Below, one piece after another: positions 31,527 through 47,186 of a stretch of 64,000 nucleotides of DNA (the stretch's first letter is position 1; every line of letters starts with the position of its first letter). The position numbers and the translations under genes are program-made. This stretch comes from Escherichia phage vB_EcoM_Schickermooser, in the sequence record NC_048196.1; one strand, 5' to 3'. The notes below the pieces were generated by a model. The model was not told where the DNA came from, made no database searches, and saw only the letters and a program-made list of their open reading frames with translations.

Positions 31527-31787
31527 TTACTCCGCAATTTGAGCCATGAGATCACGCAGTTCGGTAAAACCGCCTACGTATGTTACCTCCCCGTTCACTT
31601 CAGACAAAATTTGTGGAAATGTGCGTGGAGGAACTCCGGTAAGATCAACAACTGTTTTAGTCATTGATTCTAAATCGTAGTCTTGGTCAAGACTTAAATA
31701 TTCAAACTGTTTATTGCGCATGGTTAATAGTTGTTTTGACATTTCGCAAAATTGACAGTTAGGTTTACCAAAAATTACAAATTCCAT
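31527..31787 (-). CDS. glutaredoxin (NrdH/Grx-like)
   Basis: CQFC redox motif in GKPNCQFCEMSK; 86 aa. Confidence 0.65.
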   Translation of the reverse strand: MEFVIFGKPNCQFCEMSKQLLTMRNKQFEYLSLDQDYDLESMTKTVVDLTGVPPRTFPQILSEVNGEVTYVGGFTELRDLMAQIAE

Positions 31788-32629
31788 TACCTCTCCTTAT
31801 TAAGTAATACTGCTAAAGACCGTTCAATACCTTTATTTAAATCTGATTTTGTAAGATAGTGACTGGTTACTAGTTGTGACTTCACCGGACGTGCTGCTGG
31901 AGCATTATAGGTTGAAGCTGATACCGCCGATATCTTAACAGGTTCTGGCATCTGTGTCAAGATCTTTTCCGCAAACTCCGCCCAAGAAATAAGATGGCTT
32001 CCTGCAAAATGGTAAGTCTTTACAGATCTTGACCAACCTGTTTTTAATACTTCAAAAATAGCTTCTGCTAAATCTGGGGCATATGTTGGACAAGAGAACT
32101 GATCTGCAACGATAGTAAAATCACGTTGTCCATCATTATAGCGAGACAACATAGTTTTTAGAAAGTTATTTCCAAATTCACTATATACAGACGCTGTTCG
32201 AATAATATATGCGTTCGGGTTAACTCCTCGCACCATTTTTTCACCGAGTTCTTTCGTATACCCATAATTGTTTATCGGGTTAGGTGTAGTATCTTCAAAA
32301 ATAGGATGAGAATAATTAAAAATATAGTCTGTAGAAATATGCACAAAATCAATTTTAAGTTTGCTGCACACTGCCGCAATATTTGCAGGGCCATAGGCAT
32401 TAACAGCCAAAGCAGTAGCAAAATCATGTTCTGCTTTATCTACAGCCGTATAAGCAGCGCAATTAATAACACCATCTACATAATCTTCAATAATAGCGTT
32501 TCGCACAGCTTCAAAATTTGTAATATCTACACGTTCTTTAGGATAAATTAAAGACACATTTGAAGGAGCCACTTTACGTAAAGCTTGTCCCAGTTGTCCA
32601 TTACCACCCAATACCAGATATGTTAGCAT
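31787..32629 (-). CDS. rmlD: dTDP-4-dehydrorhamnose reductase
   Basis: N-terminal GGNGQLG Rossmann motif; about 280 aa; last gene of rml operon. Confidence 0.7.
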   Translation of the reverse strand: MLTYLVLGGNGQLGQALRKVAPSNVSLIYPKERVDITNFEAVRNAIIEDYVDGVINCAAYTAVDKAEHDFATALAVNAYGPANIAAVCSKLKIDFVHISTDYIFNYSHPIFEDTTPNPINNYGYTKELGEKMVRGVNPNAYIIRTASVYSEFGNNFLKTMLSRYNDGQRDFTIVADQFSCPTYAPDLAEAIFEVLKTGWSRSVKTYHFAGSHLISWAEFAEKILTQMPEPVKISAVSASTYNAPAARPVKSQLVTSHYLTKSDLNKGIERSLAVLLNKER

Positions 32630-33189
32630 ACACCCTCGCTACGTAGCTGTTGAAAAGACTTAGCCATTGCATCTTTTGTTGATAAGATAGGTTTAAAATC
32701 TTCGTCAAAAATCATATCGAAGCCCCAATCAATCCCTATATCAGGATCATCCCAACGTAAACTTTGTTCGCTGGAAGGGTCGTATGGAGTTGTGCATTTG
32801 TATTCGAAGATAGCATCCATACTCAACACTATAAAACCATGTGCCAAACCAGGTGGAAGCCAGAACTGTGTATGGTGTCGTGCACGAAGAACAACACCGT
32901 CCCAAGCACCGTAAGTAGGACTATCTTTACGTAGGTCTACAGCGAAATCCAATACTTCCCCACTTACACAACGAACAAGCTTACCTTGCGGATTATTTGT
33001 TTGAAAGTGCATTCCTCGCAAAACACCGAAGTTTGATTTAGACATGTTATCTTGAACGAAAGTTTGTCTACCAATGATATCTTCATATTTTTGTTCATTA
33101 TATGTTTCTAAAAAGAAACCACGGTCATCTTTATAAACGTCTGGTTTGATAATTACCGCACCTTCAATTTTTGTTTTTTCTACTTTCAT
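32623..33189 (-). CDS. rmlC: dTDP-4-dehydrorhamnose 3,5-epimerase
   Basis: start set to ATG 33189 (GGAGG upstream, ATGA overlap with rmlA stop); DDRGFFLE cupin motif. Confidence 0.7.
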
Positions 33190-34064
33190 TTTCCCTCCGC
33201 TAATTTGAGTAGGTATTGCCCGTACTCTGTTTTCTTCAGTGAGTTTCCATGGTAGACCAAAGTCTCTAAAGAAATCCACCCTTTTTTGAAAGCAATTTCT
33301 TCCAGGCACGCAATCTTCAATCCTTGACAGTTCTCAATAGTCTGCACGAATTGACCAGCTTCCATCAGACTGGCGTGTGTTCCTGTGTCAAGCCAAGTAA
33401 ATCCTCGTCCGAGAACTTCTACTTGTAACTTCCTGTCTTCGAGGTAGCTGCGATTGATATCGGTGATCTCCAGTTCTCCACGCGCGGAAGGGGTTACTTC
33501 TAATGCACGTTGAATAACAGAGTTATCATAGAAATATAAACCTGTGACAGCATAATCTGATTTAGGATTTTCAGGTTTCTCTTCAATAGAAATAACTTGA
33601 CGATTACTCCCAAATTCAACCACACCGAATCGTTCAGGATCTTTCACCAAACACCCGAAGATACAAGCTCCGCCCCAAACATCTACCATCTCACTAGCGT
33701 TAATCAGTAGTTTACCAAAGCTTTGTCCGAAGAATAGGTTGTCACCTAAAATAAGAGCAACAGAGTCTTCTCCGATAAAATCTTTACCGATGATGAAAGC
33801 GTCCGCAAGACCTCGTGGCTCGGATTGGATTGCGTAAGTGAGTTTTATCCCAAACATAGACCCATCTCCAAGAAGATGCTCAAAGTCTTCCTGATCGCCT
33901 GGTGTGGTGATGATTAAGATATCCTTAATGTCAGCCAACATCAATACCGATAAGGGGTAGTAGATCATAGGTTTGTCATACACAGGGAGCAATTGCTTGC
34001 TCACACTGCGTGTTACCGGATGAAGGCGGGTTCCACTTCCTCCCGCCAAAATAATACCTTTCAT
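33186..34064 (-). CDS. rmlA: glucose-1-phosphate thymidylyltransferase
   Basis: N-terminus [18 protein letters not shown]. Confidence 0.8.
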
Positions 34065-34072
34065 AACCCTCC

Positions 34073-35065
34073 TTAAATCTTCTTACTCCACCATTGAGGG
34101 TTGTTTAAGTACCATTCAATCGTTGAGTAGAGATCTTGTTCAAATGTAGAGTTTGCACTCCAACCCAGTTCAGACTCTATTTTAGAAGGATTGATTTCAT
34201 AACGCAAGTCATGTCCTTTACGATCTTCAACAAAAGTTATCAAGTTGGAAGAAGGGTAGGTTCCTGCTTCTGGATGTACAGCATCCATGTAGTCACAAAC
34301 CATATAGATGATCTCCATATTGGTTTTGGGATTACGTGTTCCAACATTATACGTTTGACCTGGTTCTCCACCTGTTGCCACTTGAAGAATAGCTCGCGCA
34401 TGATCCTCAACAAAAAGCCAGTCTCGCACCTGATCGCCTTTACCATACACCGGAATCTCTTTATTCGTCAAGATACTTGTGATGATTTTTGGGATCAGCT
34501 TTTCTGGATGTTGATAAGGTCCAAAGTTATTGGAGCAGTTGGTTATCACAACAGGTAAACCGTAGGTACGGTACCAAGCTTTCACAAGATGGTCAGATGC
34601 TGCCTTAGACGCACTGTACGGGCTTGAAGGCGCATAAGCTGTCTCTTCGGTAAAGGGAACGCCAGAGTCTGCCATATCGCCGTACACTTCGTCTGTGGAG
34701 ACATGTACGAACATCTTAAGTTTATTTTTTGGGAGGAGCCTTGCAGCTTCCAATAAATTGTATGTACCAATAATATTGGAGTCGATGAAAACTCGTGGAT
34801 TCTTGATAGAATTATCCACATGACTCTCTGCCGCTAAGTGAATGATGAAATCGGGATTGCACTCTACTACTAAACTTTTGACCTGGGTTTCGTTTGCCAA
34901 ATCTGTTATGCTTAGTTTAACGTGAGTGATATCGCCTACATTCTCAATATCTGCTGCATAGCCCATCTTATCAACGACAAAAACTTCGTTATTGGGATCT
35001 TGACAAAGAGAGCGCACCACGGCACTCCCAATAAAACCAAGACCACCTGTTACCAGATAGCGCAT
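34073..35065 (-). CDS. rmlB: dTDP-glucose 4,6-dehydratase
   Basis: GGLGFIGS Rossmann motif and YSASK catalytic motif; first of rmlB-A-C-D. Confidence 0.75.
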
Positions 35066-35697: not shown

Positions 35698-35906
35698 TAT
35701 TCCTCCTTAATTATTTCAAATTTGGCAACACCATTTACAATAATATGACCACAAGACATAACTCCTAGCCAAGGATCGCCGTTTTTCTTCAGGCGTTTAC
35801 CGAATACATCACAAAAACCATTCTTCATTTCAGAGGCTTCATAAGAAGCCCCTTTATCAAAAACGTCTTTGAATGTGTCGATTATACCAACACATTTCAA
35901 AATCAT
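35697..35906 (-). CDS. hypothetical protein
   Basis: 69-aa ORF, ATGA overlap with nrdB. Confidence 0.45.
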   Translation of the reverse strand: MILKCVGIIDTFKDVFDKGASYEASEMKNGFCDVFGKRLKKNGDPWLGVMSCGHIIVNGVAKFEIIKEE

Positions 35907-36991
35907 TCGAAGTCAAGCTCCTCATCATCAGAGAGATCTTTGTTAGCTGAATTCAATTTGTAGTTAGTTAACTGAATCTCTTGGGCTGCTGACTGAATCA
36001 AATCAGGATTCAACCATTTTTCCATCCAAGCTAAAGGGCTATGTTTAGGTGCTTTAAACTTGGCTTTCATTTTCAATCGACGATAAATAGGAGCAGCATT
36101 GAAATAAACCCACTGTTTAGACAATTCGGCGTTAAGACCTACAATAAAACGACCTTCACTAAACAGGTAGTCACACCACTGTTCCTCTTGTTCAACAACA
36201 GTGTCGAGGATCAAAGTCAACTCTTCAATATTGTCTTCGTAAATTTTACGCCAAATTGGGTCATGCATCAATGCATCAATTACAGCATAATCCATCTTAA
36301 CATGCAAGATTTCATCTAGCATAATTTTCTGGATCAGTTTACAAGCTCCAACAAACAGTTGTTGTTCTGCCATAGCAAAAGTAGCAGAGAAGGAAGATAT
36401 AAACTGAATACCTTCTAATCCAATCAGGGCTACCATCCCTTTAAGAATCAGCAATCGAAGTTCATCGTTAGCTTCAATCAATCCTAGAGCATACTTATGA
36501 CCAGCTTCTTCCAACTGACCCATGATATCAGCAATGATACCCATACGATTGAAAATTTTATCATTAATCATAATCTGATTGATGACTTCAATTGGATCTG
36601 GAGTACATTGACGGATTATTTCAGAATACGTTAACGCATGGAGAACTTCCATTTCACTCTGCTTCATCATCATAGCACAGGCTTCATTATTACTCAAGAA
36701 TGGAGAGAACAAAGTGATGATTGATTTTGCAAGAGAATCATTTTCCCATTGGAACGATAAGTTTTTAATCATAACATCATAATTGTTTTTAGAACAAGCT
36801 ACGAAATCTTTACGTGTCTGATCCAGATTGACTTCATTCTCATCCCAATCTTGTGCTTTTTGAAGTTTGTAGAGTTTGTGCATCTCTGGATAAGTTACGT
36901 TAACAGAATCAAAGATCCCTAATTGTTCCCCTAAAAATACTGGATATTTTCCTGTTTTGTAAACTTCATTGTGTAAATTAATTGCTGCCAT
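35903..36991 (-). CDS. nrdB: ribonucleotide reductase class Ia beta subunit
   Basis: 362 aa; ferritin-like helical protein adjacent to nrdA. Confidence 0.75.
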   Translation of the reverse strand: MAAINLHNEVYKTGKYPVFLGEQLGIFDSVNVTYPEMHKLYKLQKAQDWDENEVNLDQTRKDFVACSKNNYDVMIKNLSFQWENDSLAKSIITLFSPFLSNNEACAMMMKQSEMEVLHALTYSEIIRQCTPDPIEVINQIMINDKIFNRMGIIADIMGQLEEAGHKYALGLIEANDELRLLILKGMVALIGLEGIQFISSFSATFAMAEQQLFVGACKLIQKIMLDEILHVKMDYAVIDALMHDPIWRKIYEDNIEELTLILDTVVEQEEQWCDYLFSEGRFIVGLNAELSKQWVYFNAAPIYRRLKMKAKFKAPKHSPLAWMEKWLNPDLIQSAAQEIQLTNYKLNSANKDLSDDEELDFE

Positions 36992-37035: not shown

Positions 37036-39276
37036 TCACATCTTGCAAGCTTCACAACCACCATCAGAATCTTCTTGTGCTAAAGAGTCTGCTGATTTTG
37101 TTCTACTATTAAGGTAATACAATGATTTGCCACCCAGTCTAGCAAAATTCAGAATAAACTGCATCTCAGCTTTCACGGATAAACGTCCACCTACCAATTT
37201 AGAATAATCTAGCCAAGAATCACAAGAAATTCCTTGGTCAGTAAACTTGGTAAAGATACCATACATTTCTGCAAGGTCTTTAGCCGGAGTATCCCAGGCA
37301 GATTGGTAGAACATTTTCAGTTTTTCGTAGTCTGGAACAATAAATAATACACTACCTTTCTGACTTTGTTTATACATAATGGTATCACGAACAGGATACA
37401 GAGAGTTAGTAGTATTGCTTACCAAACTGCTGGACTCATTAGGTGCAATAGCAGCCAATACACTGTTACGGATACCACCTTGTTCAATGATTTCAGCACG
37501 TAAACCTTCCCAGTCCATTTTAAGATCAAAATTACCGATACTATCTACTGTTTTAGCATAGGTGTCAATTGGTAGCCAACCTTGAGGCCATTTGGTCTTA
37601 TCGATCCATTCCGCATTACCTTTTTCCTTAGCCAGACGCAGAGAGGCTTTTGCCAACCAAAAGTAATGACGTTCTGCAAGTTCATGCATTAATTTTTTAG
37701 CATAAGCATCTGAATAATTTACAAAATTACTTGCCAAGTAATGCGCTAAGTTTGTAATACCTACACCAATAGATCTACGTGCTTTAGCAGTTATTTCGTT
37801 ATGTTTAAATGGATAATCCATTGTTTCAATAACGTTGTCAATTGTCAATACAGTGTAGTATGCAACATCCTCATATTCTTCAGGTAATACACGACCAGCA
37901 ACAATAGAAGATAAGAAGCATAAAGCCAATTCTTGATCTTCTGTATTCTCACCAGTAAAGAGATCCGGCATACTGTGGAAAGCTTTAGTTGGCAAGAAGA
38001 TCTCTTGACACAGGTTTGATTGATACACCGTATCCAGGAAAGGTGTATGGTTGTTAACGTTGTCAGCAAAGAACATGTAAATACGTCCTGTTTCTGCACG
38101 TTGAACAATAATCTCTGTCAGAAGATCACGAGCCTTAACAAATTTTTTCTTAATGCGACGACGACTTACTTTGTCATAAACTGCATCAAACTCTTCTTCA
38201 CTTTTATATAAAGCTTCATAAAGTTCAGGAGCATCATCACAACTAACTAACATCCAGTCTTCGTTTTTTGCTGCTCGACGCAAGAACGAACGGTTAACAA
38301 CAATAGAATAATCTAGTTTATCCACTCGTTTATCTATAGGTGTTGTTGGATTCTTCAGTCGAATCAGATCGTCGAAGTCTGGTTCAAGTATGGTAAAGGT
38401 AACTGTAGCACTACCTCCACGGCTTGCTTGCTTTGAAGCTCCAACACTATCTTCCATCCATTTCAGATACGGAAGAAGACCACCGTGAATAATACGATTA
38501 TTCTTAACACCTTGACCTGTGGCACGAGTTTGAAGATTAACACCAATACCTGCGTTATTCAACGTATACTCATGAGCTAAGTAATTAGCAATGGCTAAAG
38601 ACTCTGCCGTATCGTCTGCACGGAATAAACAACAAGACGCACTTCCTTTGATTGGAGTTCGTAGAGTTGTCAGATATGGCGATGGCAGATTAATCTTAAG
38701 ATCGCTGACATAAGTATAAAGTTTTTTAATATCTTCTATACGGCGTTCTTTTGGTTGGATCTCCATAACCTTCATTGCGATACCAATGAAAAGGAACTGT
38801 GGAGACTCATGCACCACATCGTTTACTGCATCTCGAATAAGATATTTATCCACCATTTGACGTAAAACAGAATAACCATAAGTTAGATTTTTATTATGCT
38901 TTACAATCTTACCGATTTCTTTGATCTCTTCATCAGTATAATCCATTTTAGCCCAATGACCACGTTCTACCATATCATGATAAAAGGTATTCAGTGAAGG
39001 GATACTGTGGTATCCCCCATGAGCCTGTTTGTAAATCATACCCAGAAGAAGTCTTCCTGCCATATCACTGTAAGCTTGTGTTTTCTTGTCAATACACGCT
39101 GCAATCATTGCTTTATGCAGATCACGTGTAGACACACCGTCATAACACCGCTTCACAGCTTCTAATTCAATTTCAGACCAGTTTAGTTTACCTGCTGCAA
39201 ATTCAGACCACTTGCGAAGTTTTTCTGGATTAAACTCCTCTGTCTTACCGTTAGATTTAGTTACAAAACGAATCAA
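37036..39276 (-). CDS. nrdA: ribonucleotide reductase class Ia alpha subunit
   Basis: 746 aa; ATP-cone-like N-terminus; C-terminal Cys pair (CEACKM); TTG start after GGAGGAGAAG. Confidence 0.85.
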   Translation of the reverse strand: MIRFVTKSNGKTEEFNPEKLRKWSEFAAGKLNWSEIELEAVKRCYDGVSTRDLHKAMIAACIDKKTQAYSDMAGRLLLGMIYKQAHGGYHSIPSLNTFYHDMVERGHWAKMDYTDEEIKEIGKIVKHNKNLTYGYSVLRQMVDKYLIRDAVNDVVHESPQFLFIGIAMKVMEIQPKERRIEDIKKLYTYVSDLKINLPSPYLTTLRTPIKGSASCCLFRADDTAESLAIANYLAHEYTLNNAGIGVNLQTRATGQGVKNNRIIHGGLLPYLKWMEDSVGASKQASRGGSATVTFTILEPDFDDLIRLKNPTTPIDKRVDKLDYSIVVNRSFLRRAAKNEDWMLVSCDDAPELYEALYKSEEEFDAVYDKVSRRRIKKKFVKARDLLTEIIVQRAETGRIYMFFADNVNNHTPFLDTVYQSNLCQEIFLPTKAFHSMPDLFTGENTEDQELALCFLSSIVAGRVLPEEYEDVAYYTVLTIDNVIETMDYPFKHNEITAKARRSIGVGITNLAHYLASNFVNYSDAYAKKLMHELAERHYFWLAKASLRLAKEKGNAEWIDKTKWPQGWLPIDTYAKTVDSIGNFDLKMDWEGLRAEIIEQGGIRNSVLAAIAPNESSSLVSNTTNSLYPVRDTIMYKQSQKGSVLFIVPDYEKLKMFYQSAWDTPAKDLAEMYGIFTKFTDQGISCDSWLDYSKLVGGRLSVKAEMQFILNFARLGGKSLYYLNSRTKSADSLAQEDSDGGCEACKM

Positions 39277-39292
39277 CTTCTCCTCCCTATTA

Positions 39293-39547
39293 TTAATGCA
39301 TATTCAAAACATCTACATCATAACCGAACTTCATTTCATTAAAAAGTCCATTAGCATATAGAAAACCTTCAAAATGAGTTATGTCATCAAACCCTTTTGC
39401 TTTTGCTCGACGGTCTGCTTCTTGTCTTTTAGGAGATAAACGTTTTGAAGTGTCTAGAATTACAGTTACATTACAACCAACAGTTTCATCAAAATAGACT
39501 TCGATTTCACAGCCTTCATATTTATTATCAGTCATTGTCCCTCTCAT
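39293..39547 (-). CDS. hypothetical protein
   Basis: 84-aa ORF. Confidence 0.45.
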   Translation of the reverse strand: MRGTMTDNKYEGCEIEVYFDETVGCNVTVILDTSKRLSPKRQEADRRAKAKGFDDITHFEGFLYANGLFNEMKFGYDVDVLNMH

Positions 39548-39954
39548 TGATTAGTATCATCTGCTTTCGCAGGATCATAAGAGTTACCGAAATCATCCAT
39601 CTTAATATGTGACGCACCCCAACCTGTAAATTCTTCATCACCAAAATGAAAAATATCATTTTCTTGGTAGATTCGTTTAAAACCACAATTAGGTGAAACA
39701 GGGAAAGTGAAAAGCGTTGTATTTGCAAACACTACTCGCTTATCGTTATTGCTTCGGATATTCACATTACGCTCAACAGAATAGTGTGAATCTTCAGCCA
39801 TACCCAGCATTACAAGCGACGCTCTAATAACAGCATTTTGTTTCTCGTGTGGGATATTACCATTGTGTTTATTTGATTCTAGTTTCCAGATAGGGGTAGA
39901 CATTACAGTAGACATGCTTACGGTAGCCCAAGTTGTAGTATTTACTAATGACAT
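39544..39954 (-). CDS. hypothetical protein
   Basis: ATG 39954 after AAGGAGAAAAT. Confidence 0.5.
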   Translation of the reverse strand: MSLVNTTTWATVSMSTVMSTPIWKLESNKHNGNIPHEKQNAVIRASLVMLGMAEDSHYSVERNVNIRSNNDKRVVFANTTLFTFPVSPNCGFKRIYQENDIFHFGDEEFTGWGASHIKMDDFGNSYDPAKADDTNQ

Positions 39955-40052
39955 ATTTTCTCCTTCATTTTGAATGGGAGGACTCACCTCCTCCCAGTAT
40001 TGTGCTATATTATACTAAAACTAATACTAAAGTCAATAACTATTTAAACAGA

Positions 40053-41051
40053 TCACCATTTAGTATGATTTGTTAAAAGTTGACGATGTTGAATCCAGCC
40101 TTTGAAATTGCCAGACCAAAACTTACCATTACGATCTACATGGGTAATACCTGGTTCCCAAGAGTTAAAATCCCAAGGAGCATTGATAAACAAATCTTCA
40201 AAACAGTTCTCTCCGTATTGTTCGCATGTTTCTTGCATTGGGGTGGCTTGATGTTCAAACGGAGAAGCATGAACCTTGCGCCCAGTTAGCAAACGACCAT
40301 AGATATCTAAAGCTTTATCTTTAGTTGCATTCAAACGACGATAGCTAACCTGTGCACAACACGAAGCTGAAATAGCTTTGGCTTCTTCCAAAGTAAGCAC
40401 AACAACTTCTCCAGATTCATCTTGAACATAGTATCCACCAAAAACAAAATGATCGTCACCTTCTGTGCCAATACTATCATAGAAATGGTCTACATAAGGT
40501 GTGTGCCATTGCCCTGGTTTCAGCACTTCTGGTGTAGATTCTTCATACTCTTTGTGCATCTCTTTAGCCAAAGCCTCGATAGTAGGATCGGCTTCTTTGT
40601 CATCACGTAGCCACCAGAAATTTTCATATTCTGTTGCTGTCAGAACTGTTTTAATTCGTTGGAAAGGTTCCAGAAGACGGTTTGCAACTTGTTTGTGGTA
40701 CCCTGCCAAAGAGAATTCTTCTGCAAAACGTGCTGCACTAAGCGCGGCAAGATCCCACCACTCTTGAGCAGTATAACCTGCATCAATAAGAGCATCATGG
40801 TCAACACCTTTATCCTGCATACCAGGTTGGTTAGCCCCAAAACGATAAGGACGAGCAGGTTGACTTCGCACCATTTCAATCAGTGTTTTAACAGGTATAG
40901 CACGGCTAGAAGCAGCATTACGACTGAACAGGCGGTGAGTCATCAATTCTGAATGAATAATACGTGGATACTCTAGTTCAAAAGTTACAATCTCTTTTCC
41001 GTCTTCAGTGATGGAATGCGCAATAATACTAGCCGAAATCTGTTTTGTCAT
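40053..41051 (-). CDS. thyX: ThyX-like flavin-dependent thymidylate synthase (variant motif)
   Basis: THRLFSRNAASSRA aligns to the ThyX RHR-x7-S-x-R signature, with Thr in place of the first Arg. Confidence 0.55.
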   Translation of the reverse strand: MTKQISASIIAHSITEDGKEIVTFELEYPRIIHSELMTHRLFSRNAASSRAIPVKTLIEMVRSQPARPYRFGANQPGMQDKGVDHDALIDAGYTAQEWWDLAALSAARFAEEFSLAGYHKQVANRLLEPFQRIKTVLTATEYENFWWLRDDKEADPTIEALAKEMHKEYEESTPEVLKPGQWHTPYVDHFYDSIGTEGDDHFVFGGYYVQDESGEVVVLTLEEAKAISASCCAQVSYRRLNATKDKALDIYGRLLTGRKVHASPFEHQATPMQETCEQYGENCFEDLFINAPWDFNSWEPGITHVDRNGKFWSGNFKGWIQHRQLLTNHTKW

Positions 41052-41060
41052 TTTTTCTCC

Positions 41061-41669
41061 TTAGTTTTTAAAATTGTTCAAAGTGTTAAAAACATCCAAA
41101 CATGTTAACCACTGATCTTCTAAACCTGTGATCACAACATTTGGTTTTTTCTTTAGTTCTTCTAGATGGTTATCTTTATAAGGCGTATTAAAATATATTT
41201 TAACCACTTCATCTGGAAAATATAGTAGGTTATCAGCCCTGTCATCTATTGCTATATCACAAGGCAATAAGTATTTTTCTTTCGTAGCAAAAAAGCCGTT
41301 ACCAGATCCTTTGCTAAAATCAATCGTATCTAACGTTCTTAAAACATGCTTATGTTTAGAACTTAAGTGACCACCTTTTGTCACACTTGCGATCAAAAGA
41401 TTGCTACCTTTCCTTGAAACATACTTTAAGAAATCTGGCATACCTGGAACAAAACCCATTGTATCATAGAGATGAGGATTATCCAGAAATCCGTAAGGAT
41501 CTATATTGAACTCCTCCCTGAAACCAGGAAAGTAGTTGGTAAGATCATAGTCTGCATTTTTTGTGAATGTGTCTATCTTAACACCAAGTCCACTAATCTT
41601 ATTCAACCATTCTAACCAAGCAACATCTAATGGAGCCACAACTAAATCCCAATCACATACTATCTGCAT
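41061..41669 (-). CDS. HAD-superfamily nucleotidase (putative 5'-deoxynucleotidase)
   Basis: N-terminal CDWDLVV matches HAD motif I DxDx(V/T). Confidence 0.45.
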   Translation of the reverse strand: MQIVCDWDLVVAPLDVAWLEWLNKISGLGVKIDTFTKNADYDLTNYFPGFREEFNIDPYGFLDNPHLYDTMGFVPGMPDFLKYVSRKGSNLLIASVTKGGHLSSKHKHVLRTLDTIDFSKGSGNGFFATKEKYLLPCDIAIDDRADNLLYFPDEVVKIYFNTPYKDNHLEELKKKPNVVITGLEDQWLTCLDVFNTLNNFKN

Positions 41670-41705
41670 AAAACCTCCTCTCTCTTTTAGTATAGTTATC
41701 TTATA

Positions 41706-42260
41706 CTAACTTTCAATTTCCTGCAATAGGATTTTGACTATTTGTTTGCGGCGTTTCGCTACTGTGCTTTCAGGTTCTATTTTACGCTTCTTCAACCAAG
41801 CTTTATCTTTCTTAGCTCTACACAAAGCTATTGCTTCTTTTTCAGCTTTCGCTTCTTCAAAAGATATGCCTTGCTTGTCTGCATAAGCAAGAATAGAGTT
41901 GCACAATTTACAAACCATTCGCAAATCTTCTTCTTTCACATAGATTAAACGGAAAACAAAAAGAGGAATATCATCAAAACATTGAAGTTGTTTTGCTGCG
42001 TGAATATGATCCACTTGGAAGTCTTTCATTCCTCCTCTATGTCCACATATTTCGCACTCACAATTCCAAACTTGTTTTGGTTTTCCAGTTTTCTTGTCTA
42101 TCATCACATTGCCGTCTTTATCTACGCGATCAACTTTAAAACGCCTTGCATTGATAACCTTAATTTTATTAGGGTGTCTCATCCATGCTTTTCTAAAACA
42201 TCCTCTAAGATAAGTATAAAATTCCGCTTGTGTTTTCCAGGGTGTTCCTTCACCCCACAT
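41706..42260 (-). CDS. HNH endonuclease
   Basis: CECEICGH ... DHIH ... CKLCN; ATG 42260 preferred over TTG 42281. Confidence 0.55.
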   Translation of the reverse strand: MWGEGTPWKTQAEFYTYLRGCFRKAWMRHPNKIKVINARRFKVDRVDKDGNVMIDKKTGKPKQVWNCECEICGHRGGMKDFQVDHIHAAKQLQCFDDIPLFVFRLIYVKEEDLRMVCKLCNSILAYADKQGISFEEAKAEKEAIALCRAKKDKAWLKKRKIEPESTVAKRRKQIVKILLQEIES

Positions 42261-42448
42261 TATTTTTGGTTCACCTGCCAATATTGCTCACCTTTTTAGC
42301 TGTATATTCCCCTGGTGGGATATTGTGTTTAAAAAACAAAAGGCGGTCTAACCCCGCCTTGCACATTGTTTCTGGAATAGTCAAAGTTAGTAAAAGTTTA
42401 TCACCTTTTCGGTTGAATATTTTATAAACTTCTCCTGCTCCATATTGT

Positions 42449-42850
42449 TTAGTATTGCTCGCCACTAATACGTTCCTTAAGTTGTTTAATAGCTTCAACT
42501 GCATCTACATAAGAAGAGTTATACATGTGTTTCAGTGCCACTCGGATTAAAGGATCTTTTGTGAAGAAATCAATAAGAAGCATAGCTTGATCATGTTTAG
42601 CTGCATTTGTCATAGATGGATAATTTTCACGAACCATATACGTGTTATTTTGCATAAGGGTTCTTTCTAGTTCGATACAATGAATAGCTTTATCTAGGTT
42701 AATCTGACGTTCACCTTTAATACGTGTTGCGTATTTTGCCAATTTGCAAAAACAAGGTGTGCCACCAACCAAATAAGTTAGTTCGATAGGTTGCATTGCC
42801 ATTTTTGTGTAGTGATCACCGTCAACCTGATTATCAAAAGCATTAGACAT
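42449..42850 (-). CDS. hypothetical protein
   Basis: 133-aa ORF. Confidence 0.5.
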   Translation of the reverse strand: MSNAFDNQVDGDHYTKMAMQPIELTYLVGGTPCFCKLAKYATRIKGERQINLDKAIHCIELERTLMQNNTYMVRENYPSMTNAAKHDQAMLLIDFFTKDPLIRVALKHMYNSSYVDAVEAIKQLKERISGEQY

Positions 42851-43115
42851 AATTTTCCTCCTGAATTCCTACTGCGCCTTCTTCTGGGTAATCTGTATAA
42901 TAAGCTACCCTACCTTGATAGATAACATCACCATCATCATTGTAGATTGCTGTATCTTCTTGAATTGTTATTTTAACGTCAAGTAAATCTGGGTCTTTCT
43001 CGATGGTGTAGTTTAAACCTAACATTTCAAACAGTTCGAAAATTTCGTTACCTGTTAATGTAATGCTCATATTTCCTCCTTTTATTGTGGTTAGCAGAGT
43101 ATACACTAATATCAA
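42843..43115 (-). CDS. hypothetical protein
   Basis: AAGGAGGAAAT SD then ATG. Confidence 0.5.
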   Translation of the reverse strand: MILVYTLLTTIKGGNMSITLTGNEIFELFEMLGLNYTIEKDPDLLDVKITIQEDTAIYNDDGDVIYQGRVAYYTDYPEEGAVGIQEENYV

Positions 43116-46460: not shown

Positions 46461-47186
46461 TTACTTATTAATAATACCTGCAATATTAGGTTTGACAAAG
46501 GTCGATGGTTTCATGATCTTACCTTTATCATCAAAGAACACATACACTTTCTGTTTTTCATTATAAACAGCATGAACACCAGTGTATGCCCCTTCTGGAC
46601 GATTGGCATTTCGTTCTTCAATTGCAGCGCATTCTTGTGCAATGGCTGAATCGATATCCGAAGTTTTCCAAGTTTTCAGCAACTGTTGTTTAGTTGGATA
46701 CTTGGAATCATTACTTTTCAATACCTCTTTAATAACTTTCTTTTCTGGATATTTTGAACGGATTAGAGTGTCACGAGACATACGCATAATACCAGCAGCC
46801 ATTAGTGCCATTTGAACTGGCTCTGTAAATGTTTGTTCCAAAGCATCAAAATCAGTATACACAGTTGGAGTAAAAACATCGCCTACAGCATAGTCCAAGA
46901 AATTCATCGTATGTTCTTCACCAAAGAACATGTAGGTCAGATAACTGGATACTACAAAAATATCCGCTGCTGCATCCAAGAGTTCTACATGATCGTTTAC
47001 TTTCGCGGCTGTTTCATACTCTTTAAGCTCTTCACGAACGAATCCGATTTGGGACATAAATAGCTCTTGAGTGAATTCAGGTTGTTCACCACCTCGTGCT
47101 TTAGCATTCCAATCAATCACGTGCTTCGCTGCATTTTTGAAAAATTCAGTATCGAACTTAATATCTTTAAAAAAATTCTCGATCAT
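46461..47186 (-). CDS. hypothetical protein, possibly MazG-like NTP pyrophosphohydrolase
   Basis: all-alpha E-rich segment EELKEYETAAK...ELLDAAADI. Confidence 0.35.
   Translation of the reverse strand: MIENFFKDIKFDTEFFKNAAKHVIDWNAKARGGEQPEFTQELFMSQIGFVREELKEYETAAKVNDHVELLDAAADIFVVSSYLTYMFFGEEHTMNFLDYAVGDVFTPTVYTDFDALEQTFTEPVQMALMAAGIMRMSRDTLIRSKYPEKKVIKEVLKSNDSKYPTKQQLLKTWKTSDIDSAIAQECAAIEERNANRPEGAYTGVHAVYNEKQKVYVFFDDKGKIMKPSTFVKPNIAGIINK

Follow-up and report, generated by a model that had tools for sequence, protein, structure and literature searches.

The thyX-like gene and the phosphatase gene upstream of it

The window analysed here is a stretch of 64,000 nucleotides from Escherichia phage vB_EcoM_Schickermooser (NC_048196.1), and this report deals with two adjacent genes within it, a thyX-like gene and a gene for a HAD-type phosphatase, which are arranged as follows.

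40053..41051, minus strand: gene for a ThyX-like flavin-dependent thymidylate synthase of a rearranged phage clade, 332 amino acids (aa)
41061..41669, minus strand: gene for an NT5C-like HAD phosphatase, putative 5'(3')-deoxyribonucleotidase, 202 aa, immediately upstream of thyX and in the same orientation

Both open reading frames (ORFs) are real conserved genes rather than chance ORFs: the region is 100% identical over window bases 39000-43000 to GenBank MH160766.1 (Escherichia phage vB_EcoM-Ro121lw) and homologues number in the thousands. The same bases show at least 99% identity to about 10 further records and about 99% identity to phAPEC8 and its other close relatives, and all these relatives belong to the phAPEC8-like myoviruses (genus Phapecoctavirus, subfamily Stephanstirmvirinae). 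Their GenBank records already name the product of ORF 40053-41051 a "putative" or "FAD-dependent" thymidylate synthase, and that of ORF 41061-41669 a "hypothetical protein" or "deoxyribonucleotidase". The gap between the two ORFs is 9 bp, and a promoter and terminator scan, otherwise indecisive for the gene pair, found no terminator-like site between them; the two genes are probably co-transcribed.

Segment order and active site of the ThyX-like protein

The first-pass annotation, made from the letters alone, had described the 332-aa protein encoded at 40053-41051 as a divergent ThyX in which Thr replaces the first Arg of the RHR signature, and this description is borne out by comparison with the family. 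Canonical ThyX is represented by PF02511 and TIGR02170 and by the structures 1KQ4/1O26 (Thermotoga maritima, Tm), 2AF6 (Mycobacterium tuberculosis, Mtb), 3AH5 (Helicobacter pylori) and 2CFA/4FZB (PBCV-1). The phage protein passes Pfam Thy1 (PF02511) with 34.8 bits vs a gathering score of 24.8, although this match covers aa 22-175 only, corresponding to profile positions 59-191 of 191, i.e., the C-terminal two thirds, and PHROG 85 'thymidylate synthase' matches the ORF over its whole length (4.8e-109). The protein carries ELMTHRLFSRNAASSRA, that is T38-H39-R40-x7-S48-S49-R50, in which the first Arg of the signature RHR-x7-S(-x-R) is Thr and the remaining positions are kept.

40899..40940, minus strand: variant ThyX motif T38-H39-R40-L-F-S-R-N-A-A-S48-S49-R50-A51, aligned by HMMER and hhalign to Tm R78-H79-R80...S88-G89-R90-Y91

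Among 126 full-length representatives at 50% identity, T38 is conserved in 96%, H39 in 99%, S48 in 98%, R50 in 99% and A51 in 99%, and Thr occupies the first-Arg position in 228 of 232 motif matches and in 94 of 97 environmental loci. By these counts, the Thr variant is the signature of a large phage ThyX clade and not a local oddity. The first-pass annotation had staked its proposal of an unusual nucleotide partly on this Thr being uncommon among functional ThyX enzymes; the residue proved common among the homologues, and no clade member with measured activity was found, so that the point is settled for the frequency of the residue only.

A profile of the clade was aligned by hhalign to a canonical profile built from 119 relatives and Tm ThyX itself, whose sequence was checked against PDB 1KQ4, and two separate significant alignments were obtained, which divide the protein into the following segments.

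40530..40991, minus strand: catalytic core, aa 21-174, equivalent to Tm ThyX 61-199 (hhalign Prob 93.5%, E 2.3e-7), holding R125, N144 and R149
40374..40529, minus strand: clade-specific insert, aa 175-226, a beta-hairpin region in the AlphaFold2 (AF2) secondary structure, with invariant H183 and P185
40248..40373, minus strand: relocated element, aa 227-268 (α1-α2 and H261-A-S-P-F-E-H267), equivalent to Tm 21-60 (hhalign Prob 93.1%, E 3.2e-7)
40056..40247, minus strand: clade-specific C-terminal module, aa 269-332, a variable loop followed by conserved N315 and Q321 and invariant R323

In canonical enzymes the HxSPFEH element lies N-terminal to the RHR motif, whereas in the phage protein the equivalent of Tm 21-60 comes after the equivalent of Tm 61-199. 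Judged by these alignments, the canonical N-terminal element α1-α2-HxSPFEH follows the catalytic core, which is a permutation-like rearrangement. The alignment of the relocated element, which in its single-sequence version has an E-value of 9.7e-5, pairs ISASCCAQVSYR...HASPFEH with Tm LSAVRAARVSF...HETPFEH, so that H261-A-S-P-F-E-H267 faces H53-E-T-P-F-E-H59; H261 is invariant, and S263, E266 and H267 are at least 94% conserved in the clade. The position of the element after the core therefore accounts for the truncated Pfam match and for the failure of the protein to reach the cut-off of the NCBIfam thyX equivalog, and more generally explains why curated equivalog models miss these proteins. 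Neither aa 176-226 nor the module at aa 269-332 gave significant similarity to canonical ThyX by hhalign, and the latter gave none to the protein's own N-terminus either. Over aa 183-271, the AF2 model has secondary-structure elements in the order β-β-α-α-PFEH-β, matching that of canonical residues 1 to about 63; this would fit an origin by duplication and truncation. According to the literature searched, the rearrangement appears to be undescribed so far.

The C-terminal 'W-I-Q-H-R-Q...N' was also considered as a relic second RHR motif left by tandem duplication. This idea was rejected, since hhalign of aa 296-332 was null against both the canonical profile and the protein's own N-terminus, and H322 is unconserved in the wider clade.

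The 332-aa protein has the ThyX fold. The final AF2 model was made from 127 sequences and superseded an earlier one from 17 close homologues (predicted local distance difference test, pLDDT, 76; below 50 in the motif region; Foldseek E ~1e-3). Comparison with known enzymes gave values of 12.5 for the ThyX of PBCV-1, 12.3 for that of M. tuberculosis, 12.0 for that of H. pylori, and 11.1 each for that of T. maritima and for the UMP/dUMP methylase PolB. At the sequence level, a PDB search with the single phage sequence returned nothing relevant, and one with a 17-sequence profile reached E ~1 only, its local alignments being borne out later by hhalign.

Active-site residues were mapped from the HMMER and hhalign alignments, with Mtb numbering verified against PDB 3GWC. 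In the Mtb enzyme, deoxyuridine monophosphate (dUMP) is held by R95, R199, R87, S105 and R107, and Y108 forms a lid over dUMP C5 and flavin N5 (PMC6514825). The phage clade keeps R30 (Mtb R87; 94%), H39 (Tm H79; 99%), R40 (Tm R80; about 80%), S48 (Tm S88; 98%), R50 (Tm R90; 99%), R125 (Tm R147; 99%), N144 (Tm N169; 99%), R149 (Tm R174; invariant) and H261 (Tm H53; invariant). Five positions are changed and fixed in the clade, namely T38 (Tm R78/Mtb R95), A46 (Tm E86), A51 (Tm Y91/Mtb Y108), T138 (Tm N163) and T140 (Tm R165). The claim that Thr stands in place of a substrate-contacting Arg is thus upheld, T38 aligning with a dUMP contact, and the Tyr lid is replaced by A51, with Ala in 99% of the clade; E86 to A, N163 to T and R165 to T are differences at positions that contact flavin adenine dinucleotide. 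The equivalents of the dUMP-binding residues Tm S88, R90, R147 and R174 and Mtb R87 are present by alignment as S48, R50, R125, R149 and R30 (94-100% conserved), and because these ring-reading residues are unchanged, a uracil nucleotide is the predicted substrate, for which their intactness argues.

The phage enzyme thus resembles canonical ThyX in its xHR-x7-S-x-R block, its dUMP-binding Ser and Arg, its equivalents of R147 and R174, its H-x-[ST]-P-F-E-H element and its genomic place beside ribonucleotide reductase. Apart from the segment order and the substitutions (Thr for the first Arg, Ala at the lid and for E86, Thr for N163 and R165), it differs in being about 110 residues longer, with two clade-specific modules, in scoring far below the equivalog cut-off, and in belonging to a clade essentially absent from cellular genomes. 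PolB, the UMP/dUMP C5-methylase of polyoxin biosynthesis (PDB 4P5A), has the canonical segment order and serves an antibiotic pathway, whereas the phage neighbourhood suggests neither ribonucleotide nor antibiotic chemistry.

Distribution, gene neighbourhoods and the upstream phosphatase

A HMMER search of 1.84 billion representatives yielded 4,997 clusters at 50% identity with E <= 1e-3, including 1,623 with E <= 1e-30. By tblastn, homologues of the phage ThyX were found in 1,033 of 50,697 phage records from unrelated groups, and the product, where annotated, is always thymidylate synthase. The carriers include rV5-like, phi92-like and PVP-SE1-like phages, Vibrio phage ICP1, Pseudomonas Pakpunavirus (the KPP10 and PAK_P1 group), N4-like podoviruses of E. 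coli, Achromobacter and roseobacters, and Caulobacter jumbo phages, among others; gp30 of coliphage N4 has been reported as a homologous "putative thymidylate synthase" (PMC2784036). Among cellular genomes (one per bacterial or archaeal species), only 17 loci were found, nearly all on phage-sized contigs of metagenome-assembled genomes from unrelated phyla, and the rearranged ThyX clade looks essentially viral. Both this cellular-genome scan and the neighbourhood collection described below cover relatives that keep two peptide patterns.

Many clade members contain inteins (Intein_splicing with HNH, or LAGLIDADG), which bring them to 520-680 aa, as in homologues P0128, P0135, P0141, P0154, P0189, P0203, P0206, P0214, P0223, P0237 and P0261. 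The insertion sites number at least five and all lie inside conserved active-site motifs (THR...SSR, the R149 block and H|SPFEH), at positions that in the numbering of ORF 40053-41051 fall after H33, R40, L42, S48, about R149 and H261; ORF 40053-41051 itself has no intein. Insertion within conserved motifs is a pattern typical of essential nucleotide-metabolism enzymes.

A weak structural match in BFVD (A0A127AWA5, E 0.1) is the 413-aa 'thymidylate synthetase' of Bacillus phage SP-15, which belongs to another clade. SP-15 is known for DNA that contains dihydroxypentyl-uracil, and long phage ThyX-like proteins might include enzymes other than thymidylate synthases.

In the window, the gene pair is accompanied by further genes of nucleotide and sugar-nucleotide metabolism.

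37036..39276, minus strand: NrdA, class Ia ribonucleotide reductase large subunit (ORF and annotation of identical relatives)
35903..36991, minus strand: NrdB, class Ia ribonucleotide reductase small subunit (ORF and annotation)
31787..35065, minus strand: rmlB-rmlA-rmlC-rmlD, dTDP-L-rhamnose pathway, all four above their NCBIfam equivalog cut-offs (RmlB 429.9 vs 365.1, RmlA 461 vs 360.65, RmlC 224.5 vs 155.75, RmlD 238.8 vs 224.05)
31527..31787, minus strand: glutaredoxin-like protein, likely a reductant of ribonucleotide reductase (sub-threshold NCBIfam glutaredoxin matches, e.g., TIGR02181 5.2e-8, and annotation)
46461..47186, minus strand: MazG/PRA-PH-like all-alpha NTP pyrophosphohydrolase, 241 aa (Pfam PF01503, 28.2 bits vs a gathering score of 21.3)

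NrdAB and an rml operon had been placed near the pair by the first-pass annotation, and both are indeed present downstream, with rmlBACD complete. The MazG/PRA-PH-like protein may provide dUMP from dUTP or serve in house-cleaning.

Gene neighbourhoods were counted in 47 dereplicated loci flanked by at least 5 kb in both directions. A class Ia, II or III ribonucleotide reductase is present in 35/47, a HAD homologue within 3 kb upstream in 19/47, rml genes in 7/47, a ThyA homologue in 1/47 and canonical ThyX in 0/47. For instance, class Ia NrdAB accompanies the HAD gene and thyX in rV5, thyX lies near a class III ribonucleotide reductase in ICP1 and near a class II enzyme in Pakpunavirus, and an N4-like coliphage has a dCTP deaminase near thyX. 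Among N4-like roseophages (Rhodovirinae), the four genera with thyX are also the four with a dCMP deaminase gene, dcd (PMC11934525). A MazG-like gene recurs about 6-8 kb from thyX in 8/47 neighbourhoods. The one neighbourhood of the 47 that pairs a ThyA-superfamily homologue with the rearranged ThyX gene, L102 (IMGVR_UViG_3300028615_000018), carries it about 5.5 kb downstream and has a HAD homologue as well; this ThyA-superfamily protein may be a second, redundant thymidylate synthase, or else hydroxymethylate dUMP or dCMP.

A complete genome for comparison is that of the sister phage Phapecoctavirus anhysbys, whose ThyX is 99.4% and whose HAD protein is 100% identical to those described here. 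Neither in that genome nor in the window did tblastn find a match to ThyA, canonical ThyX, DHFR, Dut, Dcd, dCMP deaminase or thymidine kinase, using queries of which the T. maritima ThyX sequence was checked against the PDB. Since no ThyA or canonical ThyX was found, ORF 40053-41051 is taken as the phage's only candidate thymidylate synthase, in a Phapecoctavirus genome that encodes its own ribonucleotide reductases, both aerobic and anaerobic.

The gene immediately upstream of thyX had been read as a HAD-type nucleotidase with a DWD motif, which agrees with its assignment, by a marginal Pfam match and by its motifs, as an NT5C-like HAD phosphatase. The ORF begins MQIVCDWDLVV (D6-W7-D8), passes Pfam NT5C (PF06941) marginally (26.1 vs 24.8 bits) and also matches PHROG 420, and an NT5C domain is precomputed for many of its homologues; no NCBIfam or PDB sequence match was found for the protein. 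It has the full catalytic set of motifs I (DxDx[TV]), II (S/T), III (K) and IV (DD), and in 15 homologues down to 50% identity D6/D8 (motif I), S95/T97/K98 (motif II region), K130/K132 and D142-D143 (motif IV) are invariant, and the W of 'DWD' is variable (W, C or V). Phage records with a homologue number 403; the gene is either the immediate upstream neighbour of thyX or adjacent to a gene for thymidine kinase or deoxynucleoside monophosphate (dNMP) kinase, the thymidine kinase gene being the neighbour in phi92-like phages.

Cellular NT5C enzymes prefer deoxythymidine monophosphate (dTMP) and dUMP and form a substrate cycle with thymidine kinase. The phage HAD protein is like this family (PF06941; mammalian cdN and mdN) in its invariant DxDx[V/T], S/T, K and DD and in its thymidylate-metabolism neighbours, and unlike it in its marginal score, in having no solved relative by sequence, in being phage-encoded and in its tight linkage to thyX. 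Other phages also encode dNMP phosphatases that reshape the pool, namely T5 (Dmp) and, with their dTMP phosphohydrolases, PBS2 and the phages with 5-hydroxymethyluracil (hmU) DNA; those phages dump host nucleotides or exclude thymine and are not known to have a dTMP-forming enzyme, whereas the HAD protein described here is paired with a presumed dTMP synthase. The best guess is that it is a 5'(3')-deoxyribonucleotidase-type phosphatase balancing the dUMP/dTMP pool. Alternatively, it might act on another small metabolite, such as a flavin or sugar phosphate, and its place beside thyX would then be inherited myovirus synteny; we consider this unlikely. The marginal NT5C score and the lack of NCBIfam and PDB matches are in its favour, and the core motifs do not reveal the substrate specificity of a HAD enzyme, but NT5C is the sole family matched. 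Most of the 403 records are rV5-, phi92-, PVP-SE1- or phAPEC8-like relatives, as inherited synteny would have it, but the pairing with thyX is kept where ThyX identity falls to about 50% and HAD identity to about 32-37%, is also found in uncultured viral contigs beyond this close group, and, where the gene is away from thyX, gives way to thymidine kinase or dNMP kinase neighbours.

Predicted functions, alternatives and flanking genes

Taken together, homology, fold, residue conservation and neighbourhood indicate that ORF 40053-41051 is probably the phage's own flavin-dependent thymidylate synthase, making ordinary dTMP. The enzyme would convert dUMP to dTMP with methylene-tetrahydrofolate and reduced flavin, and would supply dTMP for replication of the AT-rich 150-kb genome alongside the phage ribonucleotide reductases. 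The added modules, e.g., the invariant R323, may replace the contacts lost with the first Arg and the Tyr lid. The HAD phosphatase, if active as predicted, would trim or balance the dUMP/dTMP pool in the manner of cellular NT5C with thymidine kinase.

The first-pass annotation had instead considered the divergent ThyX, the nucleotidase, NrdAB and the rml operon compatible with synthesis of a non-canonical pyrimidine nucleotide rather than plain dTMP, a proposal that distribution, context and the behaviour of relatives do not support and that we judge improbable. In this scheme, the ThyX-like enzyme would make a non-canonical 5-substituted dUMP, e.g., 5-hydroxymethyl-dUMP, which could arise by hydration, not reduction, of the exocyclic-methylene intermediate, the HAD protein would remove competing dTMP or dUMP, and the rml products and glycosyltransferases could decorate the base. 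The clade-fixed R78T and Y91A do remove a dUMP phosphate contact and the solvent lid over C5/N5 (for the role of the Tyr, see PMC6514825), but the same Thr and Ala are found clade-wide in over 1,000 genomes from unrelated phage groups, most of them without the HAD gene and without rml, and the residues that read the uracil and phosphate (equivalents of R90, R147, R174, S88 and Mtb R87) are invariant or nearly so. An NT5C-like phosphatase lies upstream in 19/47 loci, but the commonest neighbour is ribonucleotide reductase (35/47, vs 7/47 for rml), and thyX goes together with ribonucleotide reductase and dC-deaminase genes, as plain dTMP supply would predict.

The rml genes deserve particular attention in this respect. 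Olsen et al. 2020 noted that their placement is odd and speculated that rhamnose glycosylates hydroxymethylated nucleotides (PMC7552041); the rmlBACD set in the window is complete, and four glycosyltransferase genes form a block in another part of the anhysbys genome (L002 10294-13438), outside the window. The rhamnose may be destined for DNA, the virion or the host surface, a matter on which the literature offers speculation (PMC7552041, PMC8594841). However, anhysbys has no rmlA or rmlB anywhere in its genome, keeping rmlC and rmlD only (L003 36465-37873), and because it retains near-identical ThyX and HAD proteins, the rml genes are judged to be an accessory cassette and not a partner of ThyX/HAD. 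Moreover, Maffei et al. found that Vequintavirinae and their relatives, for all their glycosylation machinery, are "exceptionally susceptible" to restriction-modification (RM) systems (PMC8594841), and the phages JohannJBalmer and MaxBurger of their BASEL collection carry the ThyX homologue. Thymine replacement would be expected to come with a dUMP-modifying enzyme, enzymes that keep out dTTP or dUTP, a dedicated dNMP kinase, linked post-replicative transferases and restriction-resistant DNA. Finally, the nucleotide-metabolism queries gave no tblastn match, neither a dNMP kinase nor a dTTPase is annotated in the sister genome (no search was aimed at either), and the phage has several DNA methyltransferases, the usual strategy of phages with canonical bases. 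No assayed member of the clade was found that could speak for ordinary dTMP synthesis.

Less probable again is that the protein is a flavin-dependent methylase for another substrate, either UMP or another nucleotide, as in PolB, or uracil in nucleic acid, or else a ThyX relic that has lost catalysis and serves in regulation or binding. The failed thyX equivalog cut-off and the large clade-specific modules (aa 175-226 and 269-332) speak for this explanation, but conservation in this very diverse clade is at least 94% for the H261 element, S48 and all arginines of catalysis and substrate binding, which argues against a dead enzyme, and inteins target exactly these motifs. In addition, the neighbourhood is one of deoxynucleotide synthesis, not of RNA modification or antibiotic biosynthesis, and the gene is the sole thymidylate synthase candidate of a genome with aerobic and anaerobic ribonucleotide reductases of its own. 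Equally improbable is the notion that the whole 'THR' clade is something other than a plain thymidylate synthase, its opener active site releasing, e.g., 5-hydroxymethyl-dUMP. Phages that pair it with the NT5C-like phosphatase, and here also with rml and glycosyltransferases, would then have part of their thymine replaced by a modified, possibly rhamnosylated base, unnoticed as it does not block the restriction enzymes tested.

Several points nevertheless weigh against ordinary thymidylate synthesis as the function of ORF 40053-41051. Its score against the NCBIfam thyX equivalog TIGR02170 is 32.3 bits vs a cut-off of 87.9, and the clade-fixed R78T, E86A, Y91A, N163T and R165T leave room for altered chemistry or cofactor handling. 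A dNMP phosphatase beside a dTMP-producing enzyme is not obviously useful, and thymine-excluding phages, PBS2 and the hmU phages, are known to encode dTMP phosphatases. The assignment of dTMP-synthase function derives entirely from homology and context, and the literature searched held no assay, complementation test, structure or permutation description for this clade. Of the queries behind the search for other thymidylate enzymes, the T. maritima ThyX was PDB-checked, and those for ThyA, DHFR, Dut, Dcd, Cd and Tdk were unverified sequences, which weakens the negative result. The BASEL sample consists of rV5-like and phi92-like relatives and includes no Phapecoctavirus, RM sensitivity does not exclude a small modification such as 5-hydroxymethyluracil, with which it is compatible, and no base analysis or restriction digest of Phapecoctavirus DNA was found in the literature searched.

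If the protein does make ordinary dTMP, nothing is added to phage biology beyond what GenBank already annotates, namely that the phage has its own ThyX, and the value of the observation lies in the enzyme family. This is among the largest ThyX clades, phage-only, with about 5,000 clusters at 50% identity and reordered segments, and neither the first Arg of RHR nor the Tyr lid, both treated as hallmarks by structural studies, is present in it. The clade therefore offers enzymologists a natural test of which active-site features ThyX truly requires. RHR-based filters for cataloguing thymidylate synthases exclude this clade, an example of such a criterion being found in PMC2826268. The conserved pairing of thyX with an NT5C-like phosphatase poses, in addition, a small question in phage nucleotide-pool control.

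The genes that flank the pair are less informative. Immediately upstream lies an HNH endonuclease gene (41706-42281, minus strand; PHROG 1985, 8.5e-66), which is probably a free-standing homing endonuclease within the nucleotide-metabolism cluster. A strong (11/12) sigma70-like promoter match is found at 40036-40009 (minus strand), just past the thyX stop codon, and two small conserved ORFs at 39544-39987 and 39293-39547 (both minus strand; PHROG 15711 and 15807, respectively) lie between thyX and nrdA. The former is called 'minor head protein' in one record, which is implausible at that position. As well, four unannotated GenBank records with C. jejuni as the stated host, MG065650.1, MG065689.1, MG065690.1 and MG065677.1 ('Campylobacter phage B15 / A110a / A135 / A13b'), are either 99.9-100% identical here to E. 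coli Phapecoctavirus or carry a phi92-like or rV5-like version of the gene, and they look mislabelled or derived from coliphage contaminants.

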